A DNA stretch of 64,000 bases. It comes from Eledone cirrhosa (taxonomy: Eukaryota). The notes beneath the pieces were generated by a model. The model was given only the letters and a program-made list of their open reading frames with translations, searched no databases and was not told the origin of the DNA. The position numbers and the translations under genes were made by a program. Numbering within the stretch: the stretch's first letter is position 1; every line of letters begins with the position of its first letter. The DNA lies in the NCBI GenBank assembly GCA_964016885.1, contig OZ024747.1:22940001-23004000 (forward strand), in the 5' to 3' direction. Of this stretch, positions 5,443 to 56,586 are shown in pieces.

Positions 5443-5651
5443 TACATATATATATAGATACAGAGATATATATATATATAGATACATATATATATAGATA
5501 CAGAGACACATATACAGATATATATATATATAGATATATATATATATAGACATATATATATATAGATATATAGAGATATATATAGATACATATATATATA
5601 TATTATGAAAATAAAACAAAGAAGCCCTCAACACACCAAAAGTCCCCATTA

Positions 5652-5686
5652 GACAACAATGTTTCGTCCTATTAAGGACTCATCAG
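5652..5686 (-). ncRNA. Hammerhead core with 5' stem I strand lost to a short inversion
   Basis: Minus: CTGATGA-GTCCT-TAAT-AGGAC-GAAA-CATTGTTG-TC. Confidence 0.7.
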
Positions 5687-6319: not shown

Positions 6320-6380
6320 TTTATTCACTTACAATGTTTCATCCTCATCTTTTGGCAGGATTCATCAGAGCCTAATAAAT
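6320..6380 (-). ncRNA. Minimal type I hammerhead
   Basis: Minus: GGCT-CTGATGA-ATCCT...AGGAT-GAAA-CATTG-TA-AGT. Confidence 0.65.
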
Positions 6381-20071: not shown

Positions 20072-23000
20072 CTTCCAGCCTACCTCCACCCAAGTTTATC
20101 CTCAGTCTACCCACCTCCAGCCTACCTCCACCCCAGTTTATCCTCAGTCTACCCACCTCCAGCAATACCCTCCACCCCAGTTTATCCTCAGTCTACCCAC
20201 CTCCAGCAATACCCTCCACCCCAGTTTATCCTCAGTCTACCCACCTCCAGCCTACCTCCACCCCAGTTTATCCTCAGTCTACCCACCGCCAGCAATACCC
20301 TCCACCCCAGTTTATCCTCAGTCTACCCACATCCAGCAATACCTTCGACCCCAGTTTATCCTCAGTCTACCCACCTCCAGCAATACCCTCCACCCCAGTT
20401 TATCCTCAGTCTTCCCACCTCCAGCAACACCTCCACCCCAGTTTATCCTCAGTCTACCCACCTCCAGCAATACCCTCCACCCCAGTTTATCCTCAGTCTA
20501 CCCACCTCCAGCAATACCCTCCACCCCAGTTTATCCTCAGTCTACCCACCTCCAGCCTACCTCCACCCCAGTTTATCCTCAGTCTTCCCACCTCCAGCAA
20601 TACCCTCCACCCCAGTTTATCCTCAGTCTACCCACCTCCAGCAATACCCTCCACCCCAGTTTATCCTCAGTCTTCCCACCTCCAGCAATACCTTCGACCC
20701 CAGTTTAGCCTCAGTCTACCCACCTCCAGCAATACCCTCCACCCAGTTATTCCTCAGTCTACCCACCTCTAGCAATACCCTCCACTCCAGTTTATCCTCA
20801 GTACCCACCTCCAGCCTACCCCACCCCAGTTTATCCTCAGTCTACCCACCTCCAGCAATACCCTCCACCCCATTTTATCCTCAGTCTACCCACATCCAGC
20901 AATACCTTCCACCCCAGTTTATCCTCAGTCTACCCACCTCCAGAAATACCCTCCACCCCAGTTTATCCTCAGTCTACCGACCTCCAGCAATACCCTCCAC
21001 CACAGTTTACCTTCAGTCTACCCACCTCCAGAAATACCCTCCACCCCAGTTTATCCTCAGTCTACCCACCTCCAGCAATACCTTCCACCCCAGTTTATCC
21101 TCAGTCTACCCACCTCCAGCAATACCCTCCACATCAGTTTATCCTCAGTCTACCCACCTCCAGCAATACCCTCCACCTAGGTTTATCCTCAGTCTTCCTA
21201 CCTCCAGTTATACCCTCCACCCCAGTTTATCCTCAGTCTTCCTACCTCCAGTTATACCCTCCACCCCAGTTTATCCTCAGTCTACCCACCTCCAGCAATA
21301 CCCTCCACCCCAGTTTATCCTCAGTCTACCGACCTCCAGCAATACCCTCCACCCCAGTTTACCATCAGTCTACCCACCTCCAGCAATACCCTCCACCCCA
21401 GTTTATCCTAAGTCTACCCACCTCCAACAATACCTTCCACCCCAGTTTATCCTCAGTCTACCCACCTCCAGCAATACCCTCCACCCCAGTTTATCCTCAG
21501 TCTTCCCACCTCCAGCAATACCCTCCACCCCAGTTTATCCTCAGTCTTCCCACCTCCAGCAATACCCTCCACCCCAGTTTATCCTCAGTCTACCCACCTC
21601 CAGCAATACCCTCCACCCCAGTTTATCCTCAGTCTTCCCACCTCCAGCAACACCTCCACCCCAGTTTATCCTCAGTCTACCCACCTCCAGCAATACCCTC
21701 CACCCCAGTTTATCCTCAGTCTACCCACCTCCAGCAATACCTTCCACCCCAGTTTATCCTCAGTCTTCCCACCTCCAGCAATACCCTCCACCCCAGTTTA
21801 TCCTCAGTCTTCCCACCTCCAGCCCAGTTTATCCTCAGTCTTCCCACCTCCAGTCTACCTCCACCCCAGTTTATCCTCAGCCTACCCACCTCCAGCAATA
21901 CTTTCCACCCCAGTTTATCCTCAGTCTTCCCACCTCCAGCAATACCTTCCACCCCAGTTTATCCTCAGTCTACCCACCTCCAGCAATACCCTCCACCCCA
22001 GTTCATCCTCAGTCTACCCACCTCCAGCCATACCCTCCACCCCAGTTTATCCTCAGTCTACCCACCTCCAGCCATACCCTCCACCCCAGTTTATCCTCAG
22101 TCTACCCACCTCCAGCAATACCCTCCACCCCAGTTTATCCTCAGTCTACCCACCTCCAGCAATACCTTCCACCCCAGTTTATCCTCAGTCTTCCCACCTC
22201 CAGCAATACCCTCCACCCCAGTTTCTCCTCAGTCTACCCACCTCCAGCAATACCTTCCACCCCAGTTTATCCTCAGTCTTCCCACCTCCAGCAATACCCT
22301 CCACACCAGTTTATCCTCAGTCTACCCACCTCCAGCAATACCCTCCACCCCAGTTTATCCTCAGTCTTCCCACCCCCAGCCCAGTTTATCCTCAGTCTTC
22401 CCACCTCCAGCCTACCTCCACCCCATTTTATCCTCAGTCTACCCACCTCCAGCCATACCCTCCACCCCAGTTTATTTTCAGTCTACCCACCTCCAGCAAT
22501 ACCTTCCACCCAGTTTATCCTCAGTCTACCCACCTCCAGTCATACCCTCCACCCCAGTTTATCCTCAGTCTACCCACCTCCAGCAATACCCTCCACCCCA
22601 GTTTATCCTCAGTTTACCCACCTCCAGCCATAACCTCCACCCCAGTTTATCCTCAGTCTACCCACCTCCAGCAATACCTTCCACCCCAGTTTATCCTCAG
22701 TCTTCCCACCTCCAGCAATACCTTCCACCCCAGTTTATCCTCAGTCTACCCACCTCCAGCCATACCCTCCACCCCAGTTTATCCTCAGTCTACCCACCTC
22801 CAGCAATACCTTCCACCCCAGTTTATCCTCAGTCTACCCACCTCCAGCAATACCTTCCACCCCAGTTTATCCTCAGTCTACCCACCTCTAGCAATACCTT
22901 CCACCCCAGTTTATCCTCAGTCTACCCACCTCCAACAATACCCTCCACCCCAGTTTATCCTCAGTCTACCCACCTCTAGCAATACCTTCCACCCCAGTTT

Positions 23001-24008
23001 ATCCTCAGTCTACCCACCTCCAGCAATACCCTCCACCCCAGTTTATCCTCAGTCTACCCACCTCCAGCCATACCCTCCACCCCAGTTTATCCTCAGTCTA
23101 CCCACCTCCAGCCATACCCTCCACCCCAGTTTATCCTCAGTCTACCCACCTCCAGCCATACCCTCCACCCCAGTTTATCCTCAGTCTACCCACCTCCAGC
23201 CATACCCTCCACCCCAGTTTATCCTCAGTCTACCCACCTCCAGCCATACCCTCCACCCCAGTTTATCCTCAGTCTACCCACCTCCAGCCATACCCTCCAC
23301 CCCAGTTCATCCTCAGTCTACCCACCTCCAGCCATACCCTCCACCCCAGTTTATCCTCAGTCTACCCACCTCCAGCCATACCCTCCACCCCAGTTTATCC
23401 TCAGTCTACCCACCTCCAGCCATACCCTCCACCCCAGTTTATCCTCAGTCTACCCACCTCCAGCCATACCCTCCACCCCAGTTTATCCTCAGTCTACCCA
23501 CCTCCAGCCATACCCTCCACCCCAGTTTATCCTCAGTCTACCCACCTCCAGCCATACCCTCCACCCCAGTTTATCCTCAGTCTACCCACCTCCAGCAATA
23601 CCCTCCACCCCAGTTTATCCTCAGTCTACCCACCTCCAGCCATACCCTCCACCCCAGTTTATCCTCAGTCTACTCACCTCCAGCAATACCCTCCACCCCA
23701 GTTCATCCTCAGTCTACCCACCTCCAGCCATACCCTCCACCCCAGTTTATCCTCAGTCTACCCACCTCCAGCCATACCCTCCACCCCAGTTTATCCTCAG
23801 TCTACCCACCTCCAGCCATACCCTCCACCCCAGTTCATCCTCAGTCTACCCACCTCCAGCCATACCCTCCACCCCAGTTTATCCTCAGTCTACCCACCTC
23901 CAGCCATACCCTCCACCCCAGTTCATCCTCAGTCTACCCACCTCCAGCCATACCCTCCACCCCAGTTTATCCTCAGTCTACCCACCTCCAGCCATACCCT
24001 CCACCCCA
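20072..24008. repeat. 44-bp minisatellite with 41-bp variants, about 90 copies
   Basis: Unit CCACCCCAGTTTATCCTCAGTCTACCCACCTCCAGC(A/C)ATACCCT. Confidence 0.98.
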
Positions 24009-28099: not shown

Positions 28100-29166
28100 T
28101 AGGGCGCTAGATTGGCAGTATCGGTAGAGAGTCGGACGCCATGCTTTCCAGCATAGTTACGTCCCTTTACGATCTGAGTTCAAATCCCGCCGAGGTTGAC
28201 TTTGCCTTTCATCCTTACGGGGTCGATAAAATAAAGTACCAGTAATGCACTGGGTAATTGCTGGCCTTGTGCCTAAAGTAGAAACAATTATTAGGGCGGT
28301 AGATTGACAGTATCGGTAGAGAGTCGGACGCCATGCTTTGTAGCATAGAGTTACGGCCCTTTATGATCTGAGTTCAAATCCTGCCGAGGTAACTTTGCCT
28401 TTCATCCTTATGGGGCCGATAAAATAAAGTACCAGTTCCGCACAGGGGTTGATTTAATCGACTTTCTCCTCCCACCCCAAATTGCTGGCCTTGTGCCTAT
28501 ATAAGAAACCATTATTAGGACGGTGGATTGGCAGTATCGGTAGAGGGTAAGACGCAACATAGAGTTACGGCCCTTTATGATCTGAGTTCAAATCCCACTG
28601 AGGTTAACTTTGCCTTTCATCCTTACGGGGTCGATAAACTAAAGCAGCAGTAATGCGCTGGGGTAATTGCTGGCCTTGTGCCAAAAGTAGAACAATTATT
28701 ATTGAGTAAGGGTAGTAGATTGGCATAATTGGTAGAGCGTCGGATAAATGCTTTAGCAGTATTTGTTCTTGTTCTTTATGATCTGAGTTCAAATCCCGCC
28801 GAAGTAAGCTTTACCTTTCATTCTTACGAGGTCGATAAAATAAAGTACCAGTAATACACTGGAGTTGATTTAATCGACTTTTCCCTCCCTCAAAATTGCT
28901 GGCCTTGTGCCTGAATCAGAAATCATTATTATTATTATTGGGTAAGGATAGTAGATTGACAGAATTGGTAGATCGTCGGACAAATGCCTTAGCAGTATTT
29001 ATTCCGGCTCTTTACGTTCTAAGTTCAAATATCACTGAGGTCAATTTTTGCTTTTCACCCTTCTTGGGTCGATAAAATAAAATACGAACCAAGTACTGGC
29101 GACGATATAATCAACTTTCCCCTCCCAATAAATTACTGGCTTTGTGCCTATATTAGAAATCATTAT
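28100..29166 (+). mobile_element. Five head-to-tail tRNA-SINE copies
   Basis: Starts near 28100, 28293, 28517, 28704 and 28939, separated by (TTA)n. Confidence 0.92.
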
Positions 29167-32524: not shown

Positions 32525-35310
32525 AGACACACACACACATGTACACATATCTACACGCCGACACACACACATGTACCATATCTTCACGTCGACACACACA
32601 CATGTACACATATCTACACGTCGACACACACACATGTACACATATCTACACGCCGACACACACACATGTACACATATCTACACGCCGACACACACACATG
32701 TACACATATCTACACGCCGACACACACATACCAACGAGACACACACACATGTACATACATCTACACACTAACACACACACATACCAACGAAGACACACAC
32801 ATGTACACGTCAATGCACACACACACATACGAACGAAGACACACATGTGTACGCAAATCTATACGCCAACACACACACATGTACACATACGAACGAAGAT
32901 ACACACACATATATACACGCCAACATACACAAGTACCCATACATACACAGCAACACATACATACGAACGAAGTAACACATGTACACACACATACGAACGA
33001 AGTAACACATGTACACACACATACGAACGAAGACACACATACAAACGAAGACACACACACATGTACACATACATACAAACGAAGACACACACATGTAACC
33101 ATACATACGAACGAAGACACACATGTACACATACATACAAAGGAAGACACACACATGTACACATACAAACGAAGACACATACATACGAACGAAGACACAC
33201 ACATGTACACATACATACAAAGGAAGACACACACATGTTCACACACATACGAACGAAGACATACATGTACACATACATACGAACGAAGACACATACATGT
33301 ACACATACATACAAAGGAAGACACACACATGTACACATACATACAAAGGAAGACACACACATGTTCACACACATACGAACGAAGACATACATGTACACAT
33401 ACATACGAACGAAGACACACTCATGTACACATACATACGAACGAAGACACACACATGTACACATACATACGAACGAAGACACACTCATGTACACATACAT
33501 ACGAACGAAGACACACACATGTACACATACATACGAACGAAGACACACACATGTACACATACATACGAACGAAGACACACACATGTACACATACATACGA
33601 ACGAAGACACACACATGTACACATACATACGAACGAAGACACATACATATGTACACATACATACGAACGAAGACACACACATGTACACATACATACGAAC
33701 GAAGACACACACAAGTACACATACATACGAACGAAGACACACACATGTACACATACATACAAACGAAGACACACACATGTACACATACATACGAACGAAG
33801 ACACACACATGTACACATACATACGAACGAAGACACACACAAGTACACATACATACGAACGAAGACACACACATGTACACATACATACGAAAGAAGACAC
33901 ACATGTACACATACATACGAAAGAAGACACATAGATGTACACATACATACGAACGAAGACACACACATGTACACATACATACGAACGAAGACACACACAT
34001 GTACACATACATACGAACGAAGACACACACATGTACACATACATACGAACGAAGACACACACATGTACACATACATACGAACGAAGACACACACATGTAC
34101 ACATACATACGAACGAAGACACACACAAGTACACATACATACGAACGAAGACACACACATGTACTCATACATGCGAACGAAGACACATACATGTACACAT
34201 ACATACGAACGAAGACACACACATGTACACATACATACGAACGAAGACACACACAAGTACACATACATACGAACGAAGACACACACATGTACACATACAT
34301 ACGAACGAAGACACACACAAGTACACATACATACGAACGAAGACACACACATGTACACATACATACGAACGAAGACACACACAAGTACACATACATACGA
34401 ACGAAGACACACACATGTACTCATACATACGAACGAAGACACACACATGTACACATACATGCGAACGAAGACACACACAAGTACACATACATACGAACGA
34501 AGACACACATGTACACATACATACGAACGAAGACACACATGTACACATACATACGAACGAAGACACCTACATGTACACATACATACGAACGAAGACACAC
34601 ACAAGTACACATACATACGAACGAAGACACACACATGTACTCATACATACGAACGAAGACACACACATGTACACATACATGCGAACGAAGACACACACAA
34701 GTACACATACATACGAACGAAGACACACATGTACACATACATACGAACGAAGACACACATGTACACATACATACGAACGAAGACACACACATGTACACAT
34801 ACATACGAACGAAGACACACATGTACACATACATACGAACGAAGACACACACATGTACTCATACATACGAACGAAGACACACACATGTACACATACATGC
34901 GAACGAAGACACACACAAGTACACATACATACGAACGAAGACACACATGTACACATACATACGAACGAAGACACACACATGTACACATACATACGAACGA
35001 AGACACACACATGTACTCATACATACGAACGAAGACACACACATGTACACATACATACGAACGAAGACACACACATGTACTCATACATACGAACGAAGAC
35101 ACACACATGTACACATACATACGAACGAAGACACACACATGTACTCATACATACGAACGAAGACACACACATGTACACATACATACGAACGAAGACACAC
35201 ACATGTACACATACATACGAACGAAGACACACACATGTACACATACATACGAACGAAGACACACACATGTACACATACATACGAACGGAGACACATACAA
35301 ACGAAGACAG
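32525..35310. repeat. Minisatellite of about 32 bp derived from (CA)n-rich sequence
   Basis: Unit ACACATGTACACATACATACGAACGAAGACAC. Confidence 0.97.
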
Positions 35311-36478: not shown

Positions 36479-37071
<593 letters not shown>

Positions 37072-37144: not shown

Positions 37145-38058
37145 GGTCTTTATTCTCTCGTTCACGATTCCACCGAATTTATATTCATAGAAATCTGGGC
37201 TCTTGTTTCTTTCTTCTTCATCACTTTCTGTTGCTTAAACCATTTTGTTTGTTTACCCTAGCGTCCCCTTTATTTACGTGTCCCAACGACTTTTTTTAGC
37301 CGTTGCTCGCACCAACCTGAGGTATATGGCCTTTAATGCGACGAAATGCCTACGACGGTTGGAAGGCCACTGATGAGGACAAACTTTTTCATATGTAACC
37401 CATTTGCAGCGCCGCAGCTCCATTATTATCATATTTACACATATATTTTTTTCTCCGCTGCCACCAGTCTGTTTCGTTCTTTGTGTCTTTACCCTTTCTA
37501 GCAGTCTCTCTCTCTCTGTTAGCCTCTTCCTCACCTTTCACTCACTCATTCTCTGTCACTACCTCTCCTCCTCCCCTTTCTTCCCGTTTGACCTGTCCGT
37601 AATCCTTTTCTCGCGGGCACTTGGCCAAGCCGGTATGAATTTTTTTTTCTCTCTCTCTCGTCTGCGACTTCACAGAACTTATGTTTACCGAATTCGCAGA
37701 CCAGACCCCTTCTTCCTCCCGTTAGACCTGTGCGAAATTCCTTCCTTGCTCACATTTCAACCAGGTTTGATGGTCTTTATTCTCTCGTTCACGATTCCAC
37801 CGAATTTATATTCATAGAAATCTGGGACTTGTTTCTTTCTTCTTCATCACTTTCTGTTGCTTAAACCATTTTGTTTGTTTACCCTAGCGTCCCCTTTATT
37901 TACGTGTCCCAACGACTTTTTTTAGCCGTTGCTCGCACCAACCTGAGGTATATGGCCTTTAATGCGACGAAATGCCTACGACGGTTGGATGGCCACTGAT
38001 GAGGACAAACTTTTTCATATGTAACCCATTTGCAGCGCCGCAGCTCCATTATTATCAT
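37144..38058 (+). mobile_element. 626-bp tandem unit (about 1.46 copies) in (TA)n, carrying the permuted HHR motif
   Basis: Direct repeat with 626-bp offset; motifs at 37312-37377 and 37938-38003. Confidence 0.85.
37312..37377 (+). ncRNA. Permuted hammerhead-like motif with kink-turn, variant A
   Basis: CCAACC-TGA-GGTA-TA-TGGCCTT-TAATGCGA-C-GAAA-TGCC-TAC-GAC-GGTTGG-AAGGCCA-CTGATGA-G. Confidence 0.7.
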
Positions 38059-38299
38059 ATATATATATATATATATATATGATGCGAGAAAAACTACAGT
38101 CCCTCCATCTCAATTCTACTTTTGAAAAGCATAAGAACTGTGAAATCGGCAAAGGAAACAAATAAATATTCTTAAAAAAGACTCCAATTAAATTTTCAAT
38201 TCCAACTCTTTTCCTTATACTTTCACTCGTTTTTTTTTCATTAAAAAAAAACCTAATTTTCTTATATATATATATATGTATATATGTATATATATATAT

Positions 38300-38561
38300 A
38301 TAATATAAGATCAAAAGATGGTTAAAAGAGTTCCAAGTATTTTATTATGCGCATTTCAAAAACATATATCATCATGGGATGATATCTGCGTTCTCATCAG
38401 ATAAAATAGGAAGACATGATATGAAGCTTAAAAATTTCATATCATGTCTCCCTATTTTATCTGATGAGAACGCAGATATCATCCCATGATGATATATGTT
38501 TTTGAAATGCGCATAATAAAATATTTGGAACGCTTTTAACCATCTTTTGATCTTATATTAT
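38300..38561. repeat. Fold-back with a canonical minimal type I HHR on each arm
   Basis: 38453-38523: ATTTTAT-CTGATGA-stem II-GAAA-TGCGCA-TA-ATAAAAT; mirror copy at 38338-38408. Confidence 0.9.
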
Positions 38562-41928: not shown

Positions 41929-42418
41929 GTTATACTTTGGGAGGGTCATGTTGCCAATAAGAAACACACGCACCAGTTGCTTTCACTTCAATTTATTATA
42001 ATAAATTTATAAATTTAGGAATTTATAAATTTCCGGTTGGTTGGTTGGTTCCACAACCAGATGGTTGTTTATATATTGTCAAAGTTCTTTCGTCACACAT
42101 TCTGTGACCTCTTCAGAGACTGGGGATTCTTTCTTTGTTTTTTTGTGCCTCTCCTTTGTTCTGTCCTACACAGAAACAAAATGGCGTAGGACAGAACAAA
42201 GGAGAGGCACAGAAACAAAGAAAGGAATCCCCAGTCACTGAAGAGGTCACAGAGTGTGTGACGAAAGAACTATGACTATATATAAACAACTATCTGGTTG
42301 TGGAACCAACCAACCAACCAGAAATTTATAAATTTGTAAATTTACAAATATATAATAAATTGAAGTGAAAGCAACTGGTGCGTGTGTTTCTTATTGGCAA
42401 CATGACCCTCCCAAAGTA

Positions 42419-43170: not shown

Positions 43171-43572
43171 CTTTCGCACCCTTGGTCTGGCAGGTCGCTT
43201 TTTTTCTCTCTCTCGTCTACGATTTCACAGAACTTACGTTCACCGAATTCACAGACTAGATCCCTTCTTCCTCCCGTTAGACCTGTACGGAATTCCTTCC
43301 TTGCTCACATTCCAACCAGGTTTGATGGTCTTTATTCTCTCTCGTTCACGATTTCACCGAATTTAAATTCATAGAAATTTGGGACTTGACTCCTTCTTCC
43401 TCACTTTTCGTTGCTTCACCATTTTGTTTGTTTACACTCGTGTTCCCTTTTATTTACGTGTCCCAACGACTTTTTTTAGCCGTTGCTCGCACCAACCGGA
43501 GGTATATGGTCTTTAAAGCGATGAAATACCAATGATGGTTGGAAGATCACTGATGAAGGACTAACTTTATTC
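43171..43572 (+). mobile_element. Diverged partial copy of the 626-bp family, with permuted HHR variant B at 43492-43557
   Basis: Aligns to about 37605-38020; flanked by (TA)n. Confidence 0.85.
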
Positions 43573-43576
43573 ATAT

Positions 43577-44240
43577 ATATATGTTTCTTTATTAGCCACA
43601 GGGGCACAAAAGAAGGGGACAAATACAAAGGGGGAAGTTTACATACAATAAAAACGTATAAAATACTATCACAAATGCAATTTAAAAATTAATCGATTTT
43701 CCCCAATAGGGGGAGACATTTCATATGGGTAACACATACCCCCGAAAAAATGTGCAACCCTCATCTCCAGGAGTACAAAGAGTTTGTACCCCTTTCCTCT
43801 CTTCCTCTTTTTCCTCAACCTACAGGCTGATATAGAGAGAAGGCGCATTCTCTCGGGCCATTCTCGCCACTTTGACCCACCTTTCATAAAACTTGCTGGG
43901 GTACAGCACCTCTCTCTCCATCCTAATTCTTCTTCCAAAGTGGTATTTGAAAAAAATAATCAGTTGTTGGCCGGAGAGAAAGATGTCTGACCTCAGCCCT
44001 TTCAACCTTGTCCACCATACAACCTCTTTCGCCATAGCTATCACACAAAGGAAAACCGCCTCTCCTTCGTTTTTGAAGGAGGGTGGCGGTTTGATTATGA
44101 CAGTGGACTCGGTGGTCAACCGGATTGGTCCCACCCGCGACAATAGTCGTTCTACATAACCCCACAGGTCGGTAACGCCCGGGCAGTGTATGAATGCGCG
44201 CGCAACGGTTTCTTCGTCTCGCACGCATCTAGGACAGATC
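43577..44240 (-). mobile_element. Tx1/L1-clade LINE 3' fragment
   Basis: RCVRDEETVARAFIHC zinc-knuckle remnant, AKEVVWWTR, open to the stop at 43820; 3'UTR ends AATAAA then (AT)n. Confidence 0.8.
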
Positions 44241-52242: not shown

Positions 52243-53183
<941 letters not shown>

Positions 53184-54738: not shown

Positions 54739-56505
54739 TGGTACTATTCTCTAAGCGCTCATATATTCACCTAGCTTATGCTAAACAGAATAATTTTTGA
54801 AGCTTGTTTCTCCCCTACGGTATGCTATATTTTCTGTTGTTCTCCTGTCTCACTCGCTTTACGCGTTTTAATTGTCCTAATAACTTATTTTGGTTATTAT
54901 TGCACCGAAGTGAGATATATGATTTTTAATGCAATGAAATATCTATGATCTTCGGCAAATCACTGATGAGGGACTTATTTTATTACATGTTACCATGTGC
55001 TACCTGCAGTATTTTTCTCTATATTTTAATACATATATTTACCACTGCGATTCTGTGTTTTTTCTCTCTCTCTTACTGTTCCCCCATTCTCTCTGTTTCT
55101 CCCCCTCTGTCTTGTCCGTTAACTCTTCCTCACACTTTCACTCACTCACTGTTTTTCTCCCTCTTCTCTTCATTTCATCCTGCACTCACGAACGCTATTT
55201 TTTCTCTCTCTCTGCTCAATAGCCTTCGTTCGTGTTGGTACTATTCTCTAAGCGCTCATATATTCACCTAGCTTATGCTAAACAGAATAATTTTTGAAGC
55301 TTGTTTCTCCCCTACGGTATGCTATATTTTCTGTTGTTCTCCCGTCTCACTCGCTTTACGCGTTTTAATTGTCCTAATAACTTATTTTGGTTATTATTGC
55401 ACCGAAGTGAGATATATGATTTTTAATGCAATGAAATATCTATGATCTTCGGCAAATCACTGATGAGGGACTTATTTTATTACATGTTACCATGTGCTAC
55501 CTGCAGTATTTTTCTCTATATTTTAATACATATATTTACCACTGCGATTCTGTGTTTTTTTCTCTCTCTCTTACTGTTCCCCCATTCTCTCTGTTTCTCC
55601 CCCTCTGTCTTGTCCGTTAACTCTTCCTCACACTTTCACTCACTCACTGTTTTTCTCCCTCTTCTCTTCATTTCATCCTGCACTCACGAACGCTATTTTT
55701 TCTCTCTCTCTGCTCAATAGCCTTCGTTCGTGTTGGTACTATTCTCTAAGCGCTCATATATTCACCTAGCTTATGCTAAACAGAATAATTTTTGAAGCTT
55801 GTTTCTCCCCTACGGTATGCTATATTTTCTGTTGTTCTCCTGTCTCACTCGCTTTACGCGTTTTAATTGTCCTAATAACTTATTTTGGTTATTATTGCAC
55901 CGAAGTGAGATATATGATTTTTAATGCAATGAAATATCTATGATCTTCGGCAAATCACTGATGAGGGACTTATTTTATTACATGTTACCATGTGCTACCT
56001 GCAGTATTTTTCTCTATATTTTAATACATATATTTACCACTGCGATTCTGTGTTTTTTTCTCTCTCTCTTACTGTTCCCCCATTCTCTCTGTTTCTCCCC
56101 CTCTGTCTTGTCCGTTAACTCTTCCTCACACTTTCACTCACTCACTGTTTTTCTCCCTCTTCTCTTCATTTCATCCTGCACTCACGAACGCTATTTTTTC
56201 TCTCTCTGCTCAATAGCCTTCGTTCGTGTTGGTACTATTCTCTAAGCGCTCATATATTCACCTAGCTTATGCTAAACAGAATAATTTTTGAAGTTTGTTT
56301 CTCCCCTACGGTATGCTATATTTTCTGTTGTTCTCCTGTCTCACTCGCTTTACGCGTTTTAATTGTCCTAATAACTTATTTTGGTTATTATTGCACCGAA
56401 GTGAGATATATGATTTTTAATGCAATGAAATATCTATGATCTTCGGCAAATCACTGATGAGGGACTTATTTTATTACATGTTACCATGTGCTACCTGCAG
56501 TATTT

Positions 56506-56508
<3 letters not shown>
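54739..56508 (+). mobile_element. Tandem array of about 497 bp (about 3.55 near-identical copies) with permuted HHR variant C; retrozyme-like
   Basis: Motifs at 54905, 55402, 55900 and 56396; (TA)n on both sides; non-coding. Confidence 0.88.

Positions 56509-56586
<78 letters not shown>

Follow-up and report, generated by a model that had tools for sequence, protein, structure and literature searches.

The repeated motif in this stretch of Eledone cirrhosa DNA is best explained as the terminal hammerhead ribozyme of a non-coding, non-autonomous family of Penelope-type retrozymes, which derives from the 3' end of Naiads and is predicted to cleave itself. We give this reading a probability of about three in four, judging from the DNA. 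All core bases of a hammerhead are present on a single chain, with the cleavage site first, GAAA next and CUGAUGA last. The new features are the chromosomal copies in non-coding tandem elements and the larger fold; the block order is not new. An earlier note on this DNA had proposed a permuted hammerhead with a kink-turn consensus. That part of its fold stands, but three covarying helices (IIa, hairpin H and IIb) had been missed, and the carrier had been overlooked: the motif is the terminal ribozyme of a large Penelope-type non-autonomous family related to Naiads.

Results

Copies of the ribozyme in the window

The window, i.e. the whole 64,000-nt stretch that was analysed, contains the gap-free 66-nt motif of the earlier note at all seven places given for it (37312, 37938, 43492, 54905, 55402, 55900 and 56396). 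The further copy cited around 52332 is, as described, a 3' part only, and forms part of a palindrome, arranged head to head, with its centre at 52332-52333. The original description holds for the helices, for CUGAUGA and GAAA, for the NUH site, and for the bulge of 3 nt followed by tandem G.A pairs. The 66 nt include the core, but the fold of the first copy begins about 33 nt further 5', at 37279, and ends at about 37381 (Table 1).

A structural descriptor of the upstream strand, stem III, UH, stem I, GAAA and CUGANGA found exactly seven copies, compared with one match in 30 shuffled windows. It places H17 at 37326, 37952, 43506, 54919, 55416, 55914 and 56410, which supports the two cleavage positions proposed at the outset, 37326 and 54919. 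A covariance model built from 30 copies gave nine matches in the window (the seven copies and both arms of the palindrome), a partly circular result as three window copies are among its training copies. At the gathering score, Rfam models, including those of twister and snoRNAs, gave no match in the 64 kb, and ARAGORN found no tRNA.

The copies lie in four elements. Element A is flanked by (TA)n tracts, non-coding and rich in pyrimidines; its first ribozyme would be cleaved between 37326 and 37327. In element B the ribozyme spans about 43459-43562, with predicted cleavage 3' of 43506, and the (TA)n end lies 17 nt past CUGAUGA. The minus-strand arm of element D starts at 52332, which is the predicted cleavage site (52331-52333 given microhomology). 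Element C has four ribozymes, with predicted cleavage 3' of 54919, 55416, 55914 and 56410.

Table 1. Elements, ribozymes and parts of the predicted fold, in window coordinates. Helices and blocks are those of ribozyme copy A1.
Feature	Position	Strand	Description
Element A	37145..38072	+	One 626-nt unit and a 302-nt partial second unit, 98% identical
Ribozyme copy A1	37279..37381	+	Complete; predicted split-stem-II, SGC-order hammerhead with kink-turn
Helix IIa, 5' strand	37279..37283	+	Pairs with 37377-37381 just past CUGAUGA; closes the whole fold
Hairpin H	37284..37305	+	37284-37290 with 37299-37305; third arm of the four-way junction
Helix IIb, 5' strand	37307..37311	+	Pairs with 37337-37341 directly before N11.1-GAAA; pseudoknot replacing stem II
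Outer helix IIIb, 5' strand	37312..37317	+	Pairs with 37357-37362
Kink-turn	37318..37356	+	U-G-A 37318-37320 opposite bulge 37351-37353; G-A 37354-37355; 3b base 37356
Block S	37321..37326	+	Stem III 5' strand 37321-37325 pairs with 37346-37350; H17 is 37326
Stem I, 5' strand	37327..37333	+	Pairs with 37363-37369; double changes in 7 of 7 pairs
Block G	37342..37346	+	N11.1 and invariant GAAA
Block C	37370..37377	+	Invariant CUGANGA core and N10.1
Ribozyme copy A2	37905..38007	+	Predicted cleavage 3' of 37952
Element B	43171..43580	+	5'-truncated; 86-91% identity to A
Element D	52267..52400	.	Head-to-head palindrome with two 3' ribozyme halves
Element C	54739..56532	+	498-nt unit in 3.6 tandem copies, with (TA)n tracts on both sides

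Covariation supports a larger, doubly pseudoknotted fold

We used an alignment of 30 copies (alignment A1), hand-picked for diversity from about 200 sampled, with a mean column identity of 65%. Across its 35 pairs, 84.6% of the cells are paired, against 69.4 ± 0.8% after shuffling (none of 500 shuffles reached the observed value), and double changes occur in 28 pairs. When the partners were slid by one to three columns, pairing fell to 30-45%. Relatedness inflates column covariation tests, hence we also counted changes on the tree. This gave 29 same-branch changes from one pair to another, compared with a mean of 2.3 and a maximum of 9 in 2000 re-pairings: two in IIa, five in H, three in IIb, 11 in IIIb, three in III, five in I and none in the 10.1-11.1 pair. 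Overall, the covariation is strong.

The added helices are well paired and variable: IIa is paired in 77.5% of the cells with double changes in three of four pairs, hairpin H in 85.2% with six of seven, and IIb in 79.1% with two of five. The outer helix IIIb reaches 91.1%. Of the compensatory changes originally listed, those in stems I and III and in the outer helix hold, and stem I turns out to be longer, up to 7 bp; the single stem II pair shows no same-branch double change and is standard in only 22 of the 30 aligned copies. In the predicted structure, stem II is instead split: the strand after CUGAUGA pairs upstream (IIa), the strand before GAAA also pairs upstream (IIb), and hairpin H lies between them. 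Since IIa, H and IIb covary, stem II is replaced by a four-way junction between these three arms and the core. In this model there is a pseudoknot between stems I and III, and stem III runs via the kink-turn consensus into IIIb, which meets the far ends of I and IIb.

Nested energy folding gave z-scores of only -1.4 to -1.8, scored the opposite strand better and preferred an alternative fold for copy A. It is uninformative here because the fold is doubly pseudoknotted. We also set aside the best-register lengths of helix IIa, as a search over many registers inflates them.

Core bases and the kink-turn consensus

CUGANGA and GAAA are invariant in alignments A1 and A2, whose copies had been chosen with patterns containing these bases. 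The invariant columns of A1 are those of the hammerhead core together with the GA of the kink-turn. Two further positions were absent from the search patterns: among 147 full copies, H17 is A in 103 and C in 44, and U16.1 is U in 144, in keeping with NUH at the cleavage site.

The earlier note had placed a kink-turn consensus in stem III, and the sequences bear this out. All window copies have a 3-nt bulge followed by G1b.A1n and A2b.G2n between two helices, the same arrangement as in standard kink-turns of the Kt-7 type (PMC4382518, PMC5061560). The GA of the bulged strand was part of the search patterns, whereas the GA of the opposite strand was not; the latter (2n-1n) is GA in 114 of the 147 copies and UA in 21. 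G-C forms the -1 pair of 135 copies, and five have a Watson-Crick 3b.3n. McPhee, Huang and Lilley (2014; PMC4382518) gave a rule that relates 3b.3n to ion-induced folding of kink-turns. Variants A (3b = C) and B (3n = G) satisfy this rule, by which Mg2+ alone should suffice to kink them. In variant C, 3b.3n is U.U, as it is in 52 of the 147 copies, and the U found at 2n in 21 copies is unlike the standard kink-turn. A U.U at 3b.3n is a feature of box C/D kink-turns.

Relation to permuted hammerheads

The earlier note did not recall a description of this topology. The claim fails for the block order: Eckert, Friedrich, Weinberg and Weinberg (2023; PMC10085705) split hammerheads into blocks S, G and C, and the order site-GAAA-CUGAUGA is their type SGC. 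A match to a described variant had been named in advance as a result that would remove the novelty, and only that. Type SGC RNAs come from metatranscriptomes and cleave in vitro at 0.007-0.19 per minute, co-transcriptionally and as single units; the order has hitherto been found almost only in virus-like RNAs and metatranscriptomes (PMC10085705). The window ribozyme is not a canonical type I, II or III hammerhead, as defined by the orders CGS, GSC and SCG and the Rfam gathering score: its order is S-G-C.

The likeness to type SGC (HRIMA-1 and the SGC variants) extends to the core bases, the pseudoknotted stems I and III, the short linker from stem I to stem II and one extra helix that ties the far ends together. 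There are also clear differences. In the window ribozyme, IIa and IIb take over the two halves of stem II, with hairpin H between them, and the extra helix prolongs stem III by way of a kink-turn; neither 'kink' nor 'k-turn' occurs as a word in the PMC10085705 supplement. The spacer pairs upstream (IIIb), unlike in the published SGC alignment, so the joining-helix feature of type SGC is lacking. The published SGC descriptor demands C11.1-G10.1 and at least two further stem II pairs, and none of the 147 full copies passes it. In 137 of the 147, the strand that follows CUGAUGA forms 0-1 bp directly with the one that precedes GAAA. Hence, the RefSeq search reported in PMC10085705 would presumably have overlooked the family. 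Finally, the RNA is encoded here by some 20,000 chromosomal copies. We infer that the window ribozyme works like a type SGC hammerhead, yet it fails the stem II and joining-helix features of that type.

Types SGC, GCS and CSG would be circular permutations of one another; CSG is represented by two metagenomic sequences in PMC10085705. In the window form, the chain is opened within block C, immediately 3' of CUGAUGA-N; the published three-block scheme does not allow a break there. As SGC and CSG are mutual circular permutations, the window form would most simply be a member of the CSG/SGC class opened inside block C.

Carrier elements and their copies in the genome

We searched the genome assembly (3.0 Gb, 1796 contigs) with two patterns. 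A 34-nt pattern for the 3' half of the ribozyme gave 16,829 matches, against one for the reversed control. A complementary and mutually exclusive 34-nt pattern gave 3,844, against 32. Given that samples alone were inspected, and that a few matches of the second pattern proved unrelated in them, about 20,000 copies is a fair figure. The family pattern had no match in viral contigs.

Tandem spacings range from 445 to 706 nt (25 spacings), and no coding frame was found that belongs to the units. Among last units, 133 of 168 end in (TA)5 within 100 nt past CUGAUGA, compared with 14% of random positions. Subfamily A is young, as 40 scored copies are 100% identical over 111 nt. The (TA)n targets, partial tandems and inverted 5'-truncated copies that mark Penelope-like elements (PMC8557442) are all present; these traits are common to other Penelope-like clades as well.

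Like the non-LTR retrozymes of animals (Cervera and de la Pena 2020, PMC7229834; bioRxiv 10.64898/2026.07.22.740005), the window elements are dispersed, non-coding tandem arrays whose units are a few hundred nucleotides long and hold one hammerhead each; they have thousands of copies and probably originate from Penelope-like elements. In contrast to the described retrozymes, which carry type I (CGS) hammerheads, the units have the non-circularly permuted order S-G-C and in this respect depart from the definition of a retrozyme. Circular RNA has been shown for the described retrozymes and may be formed by the window elements.

In more distant families of the same genome, the block order and the upstream IIb strand persist at a mean column identity of 39% (alignment A2), and some of them have a plain bulge and no kink-turn. 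Very divergent S-G-C families were seen at L105:1487-1634, L108:1380-1529, L111:1268-1415, L115:1385-1534, L117:1172-1319, L081:1471-1614 and in L130. In some of these, C11.1 pairs with the upstream strand, like in published Naiads.

Integration ends and inversion junctions

The ends of truncated copies bear on whether the RNA is cleaved in vivo. We sampled 212 3' halves, 200 of them from the family; in 59, homology stops no more than 110 nt upstream of GAAA. Seven of the 59 breaks fall at the predicted site, in five loci (element D of the window, L019, L033, L050 and L193), one of the seven being a palindrome artefact and L050 being counted twice. Another 11 lie 1-4 nt before GAAA, and stalling at the structure could therefore yield a similar picture.

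Across the genome, we counted 31 head-to-head inversions for an anchor at the site, four for one placed about 25 nt upstream and 44 for one placed downstream; the anchors at and upstream of the site match 84 and 78 of the 147 copies, and about eight of the 44 come from other elements by visual inspection. Inversions thus fall about seven-fold just upstream of the predicted site. An arm start exactly at the site is compatible with 12 of the 31 junctions (P = 0.01 for this position, 0.09 for any position). Between 1 nt upstream and 5 nt downstream of the site the arm weights sum to 44.7 of 62, six junction arms having poor references. The step hints at RNA 5' ends set by cleavage in vivo; stalling at the pseudoknot could also be its source.

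Only nine A/B copies end at the site in (TA)n. We thus rejected priming at (TA)n by a cleaved 3' end as the usual route. Copying would normally start downstream of an intact ribozyme, in a ligated circle or an uncleaved RNA. In an Anolis element, copying starts internally on uncleaved RNA; the hammerhead there can be dispensed with in vitro and requires protein for cleavage, and its cleavage site coincided with the end of no RNA-seq read (PMC11167929).

A probable link to Naiads

Naiads target (TA)n and were described as being without canonical hammerheads by Craig, Yushenova, Rodriguez and Arkhipova (2021; PMC8557442), who stated the puzzle of how they thrive without a ribozyme that is present in all other Penelope-like clades. 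Some of their Naiads are marked 'HHR_core' or 'HHR_half_core', marks that fit no descriptor and are left unexplained. We compared by eye the supplementary records of that paper, covering places 11-62 of the 62 with CTGATGA and, for the other three CUGANGA spellings, places 1-20 of 23, 43 and 25; line breaks hide some matches. Among these places, nine Naiad records fit the architecture of the window ribozyme (CTGATGA places 28, 29, 30, 31, 37, 40 and 41; CTGAGGA places 5 and 6), and place 26 fits it weakly. Places 40 and 41 are Naiad_Obim and Naiad_Ovul, in which the fold lies in sense orientation, 80-90 nt from the 3' end. They appear to share with the window copies the fold, the kink-turn, a 34-nt span from GAAA to CUGAUGA and a near-identical H loop.

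In the records of the cnidarian region, IIa directly follows CUGAUGA and IIb directly precedes GAAA, by eye, so that the predicted fold is a perfect four-way junction. A 10.1-11.1 pair cannot form in these and further Naiad records, where each of IIa, H and IIb is 4-10 bp long. Six records of the nematode region fit type CSG cleanly (CTGATGA places 34 and 35; CTGACGA 6, 7 and 8; CTGAGGA 7), when only two CSG sequences were known in PMC10085705. Several records of the arthropod region (PMC8557442 supplement, parts 16-19) have a CCCC-CUGACGA core.

Hence, the SGC-order fold probably accounts for the fact that Naiads seem to lack the usual ribozyme, and the window elements are, we infer, of Naiad ancestry. 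Published Naiads carry an ORF, whereas the window elements are units of 500-630 nt without one. The Naiad reverse transcriptase remnants in the genome (nine pattern matches, and 57 matches in another search) are old and broken, in contrast to the young subfamily A. We found no ribozyme downstream of 25 Naiad remnant stretches (best E 0.37), no Naiad ORF adjoining a ribozyme in the loci screened for long ORFs, and no genome match, at two mismatches, to a short motif from the 3' end of published octopus Naiads. Two candidates for an autonomous partner were rejected: widely spaced inverted matches are canonical-order hammerheads of another Penelope-like family, and a GIY-YIG piece in L118 is the C-terminal endonuclease of a different element. 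The mobilising enzyme could come from another Penelope-like clade that targets (TA)n. In one Naiad remnant (L246, minus strand), a stretch of 49-65 nt in the decayed reverse transcriptase has grown into a tandem array of about 11 copies.

Our literature search, which covered mainly papers available without subscription, returned no natural hammerhead with a kink-turn, no permuted hammerhead in animal genomes or Naiads, and no paper joining Naiads to SGC or CSG hammerheads.

Discussion

Proposed mechanism and alternative explanations

If the self-cleaving reading is correct, helix IIb would stack on the core G.A pairs in the stead of stem II, and the kink-turn, acting as a hinge, would, with the help of the short linker, keep stems I and II next to each other, which is the job of the contact between loops I and II. 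The monomer would cleave 3' of H17 in Mg2+, perhaps slowly or with the help of a protein. Transcripts reading through the tandem units would be cut to unit length and maybe circularised. A Penelope-type reverse transcriptase would then start at (TA)n, 10-90 nt past a ribozyme that is intact (either uncleaved or ligated again), and copy one or more units. On reaching a cleaved 5' end it would often fold back, giving head-to-head inversions.

The closest competing explanation accepts the fold as real but sees it mainly as a platform for the binding and initiation of the reverse transcriptase, with self-cleavage very slow, protein-dependent or irrelevant to mobility. Almost all integrated copies retain an intact ribozyme beside their 3' end, uncleaved RNA is the main substrate of the Anolis element (PMC11167929), the hammerheads of Penelope elements have low activity in vitro (PMC4209133), and eight of nine Xenopus retrozymes did not cleave in the study of Li, Clavereau and Pollet (2026; bioRxiv 10.64898/2026.07.22.740005). 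Yet such a platform would have no need for the catalytic bases and the NUH rule, which are kept across families at 39% identity, and it does not account for the drop in inversion junctions just upstream of the site; we thus hold it to be unlikely. Still less probable is that the active form is a dimer or strand-swapped complex of neighbouring tandem copies, the monomer being unable to close both junctions, a variant of the adjacent-copy alternative that the earlier note had raised and for which we found no positive support. Copies are often in tandem, and the Penelope hammerheads of metazoans are believed to work as dimers (PMC4209133); the outer helix must moreover bridge a long distance, a geometric puzzle similar to that posed by some SGC RNAs (PMC10085705). 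However, all partners lie within about 100 nt at fixed spacings, stems I and III have their full length and no palindromic sequence, the published SGC RNAs work as single units, and a kink-turn that keeps its position would be pointless unless the chain bends back onto itself.

The smaller fold with which the analysis began, i.e. a 66-nt ribozyme with a stem II of one base pair and incidental upstream pairings, is very improbable. Positions 10.1 and 11.1 are able to pair in 122 of the 147 copies, and IIb has the fewest double changes among the long helices, but the 10.1-11.1 pair never changed on both sides along one branch while IIa, H and IIb did so (0 against 2, 5 and 3), and the Naiad records in which this pair is impossible speak against it too. 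Readings without any hammerhead, such as a twister ribozyme or a box C/D-type kink-turn RNA (CUGA and UGAU boxes), retain hardly any credibility. The UAAUGC linker resembles the start of the twister consensus, and the frequent U.U at 3b.3n recalls box C/D RNAs. Against this, no Rfam twister or snoRNA model scored high enough in the window to reach the gathering level, other families do not conserve the linker, no break falls at the twister-type position 8 nt before GAAA, and the invariant bases are those of the hammerhead core. On these grounds we rejected both.

Consequences of the self-cleaving reading

If the family is indeed made of self-cleaving Penelope-type retrozymes, these would be the first chromosomal and the first animal non-circularly permuted hammerheads, with a very high copy number, and the three-block rule for hammerhead permutations could be broken. 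The Naiad puzzle would have a direct answer, testable with short transcripts. A natural hammerhead with a kink-turn would also be a candidate protein-gated ribozyme and a new scaffold for RNA engineering. As the fold is missed by standard descriptors and Rfam, the counts of ribozymes and retrozymes in invertebrate genomes are probably too low. A bolder proposal, doubtful as a whole, is that permuted hammerheads are the missing clade-wide ribozymes of Naiads across animal phyla, that the cephalopod-type form lies outside the six-permutation scheme, and that a host protein of the L7Ae family (e.g. Snu13) switches cleavage on via the kink-turn, giving circular RNAs of 450-700 nt from thousands of loci.

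Other repeats in the window

Several further repeats were seen in the window. Minimal hammerhead cores in canonical order (CUGAUGA, stem II, GAAA) occur on the minus strand at 5650-5686 and 6330-6368 and belong to another Penelope-like family; the core at 5686 is inside a palindrome and matches a family with ORF pieces in L099-L104. Three long head-to-head palindromes (36540-36900, 38330-38560 and 42080-42280) have a CUGANGA core in every arm and are probably the inverted ends of further Penelope-type elements. Directly behind element B, a GC-richer fragment at 43585-44235 resembles, by eye, the 3' end of a LINE. A 408-nt unit is present in two copies with 82% identity at 28155-28931 and resembles a SINE-containing tandem. 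Large minisatellites span 20083-24008 and 32819-35299, with units of 44 nt and 32 nt, respectively, and the 44-nt unit produces many chance CUGAGGA matches on the minus strand.
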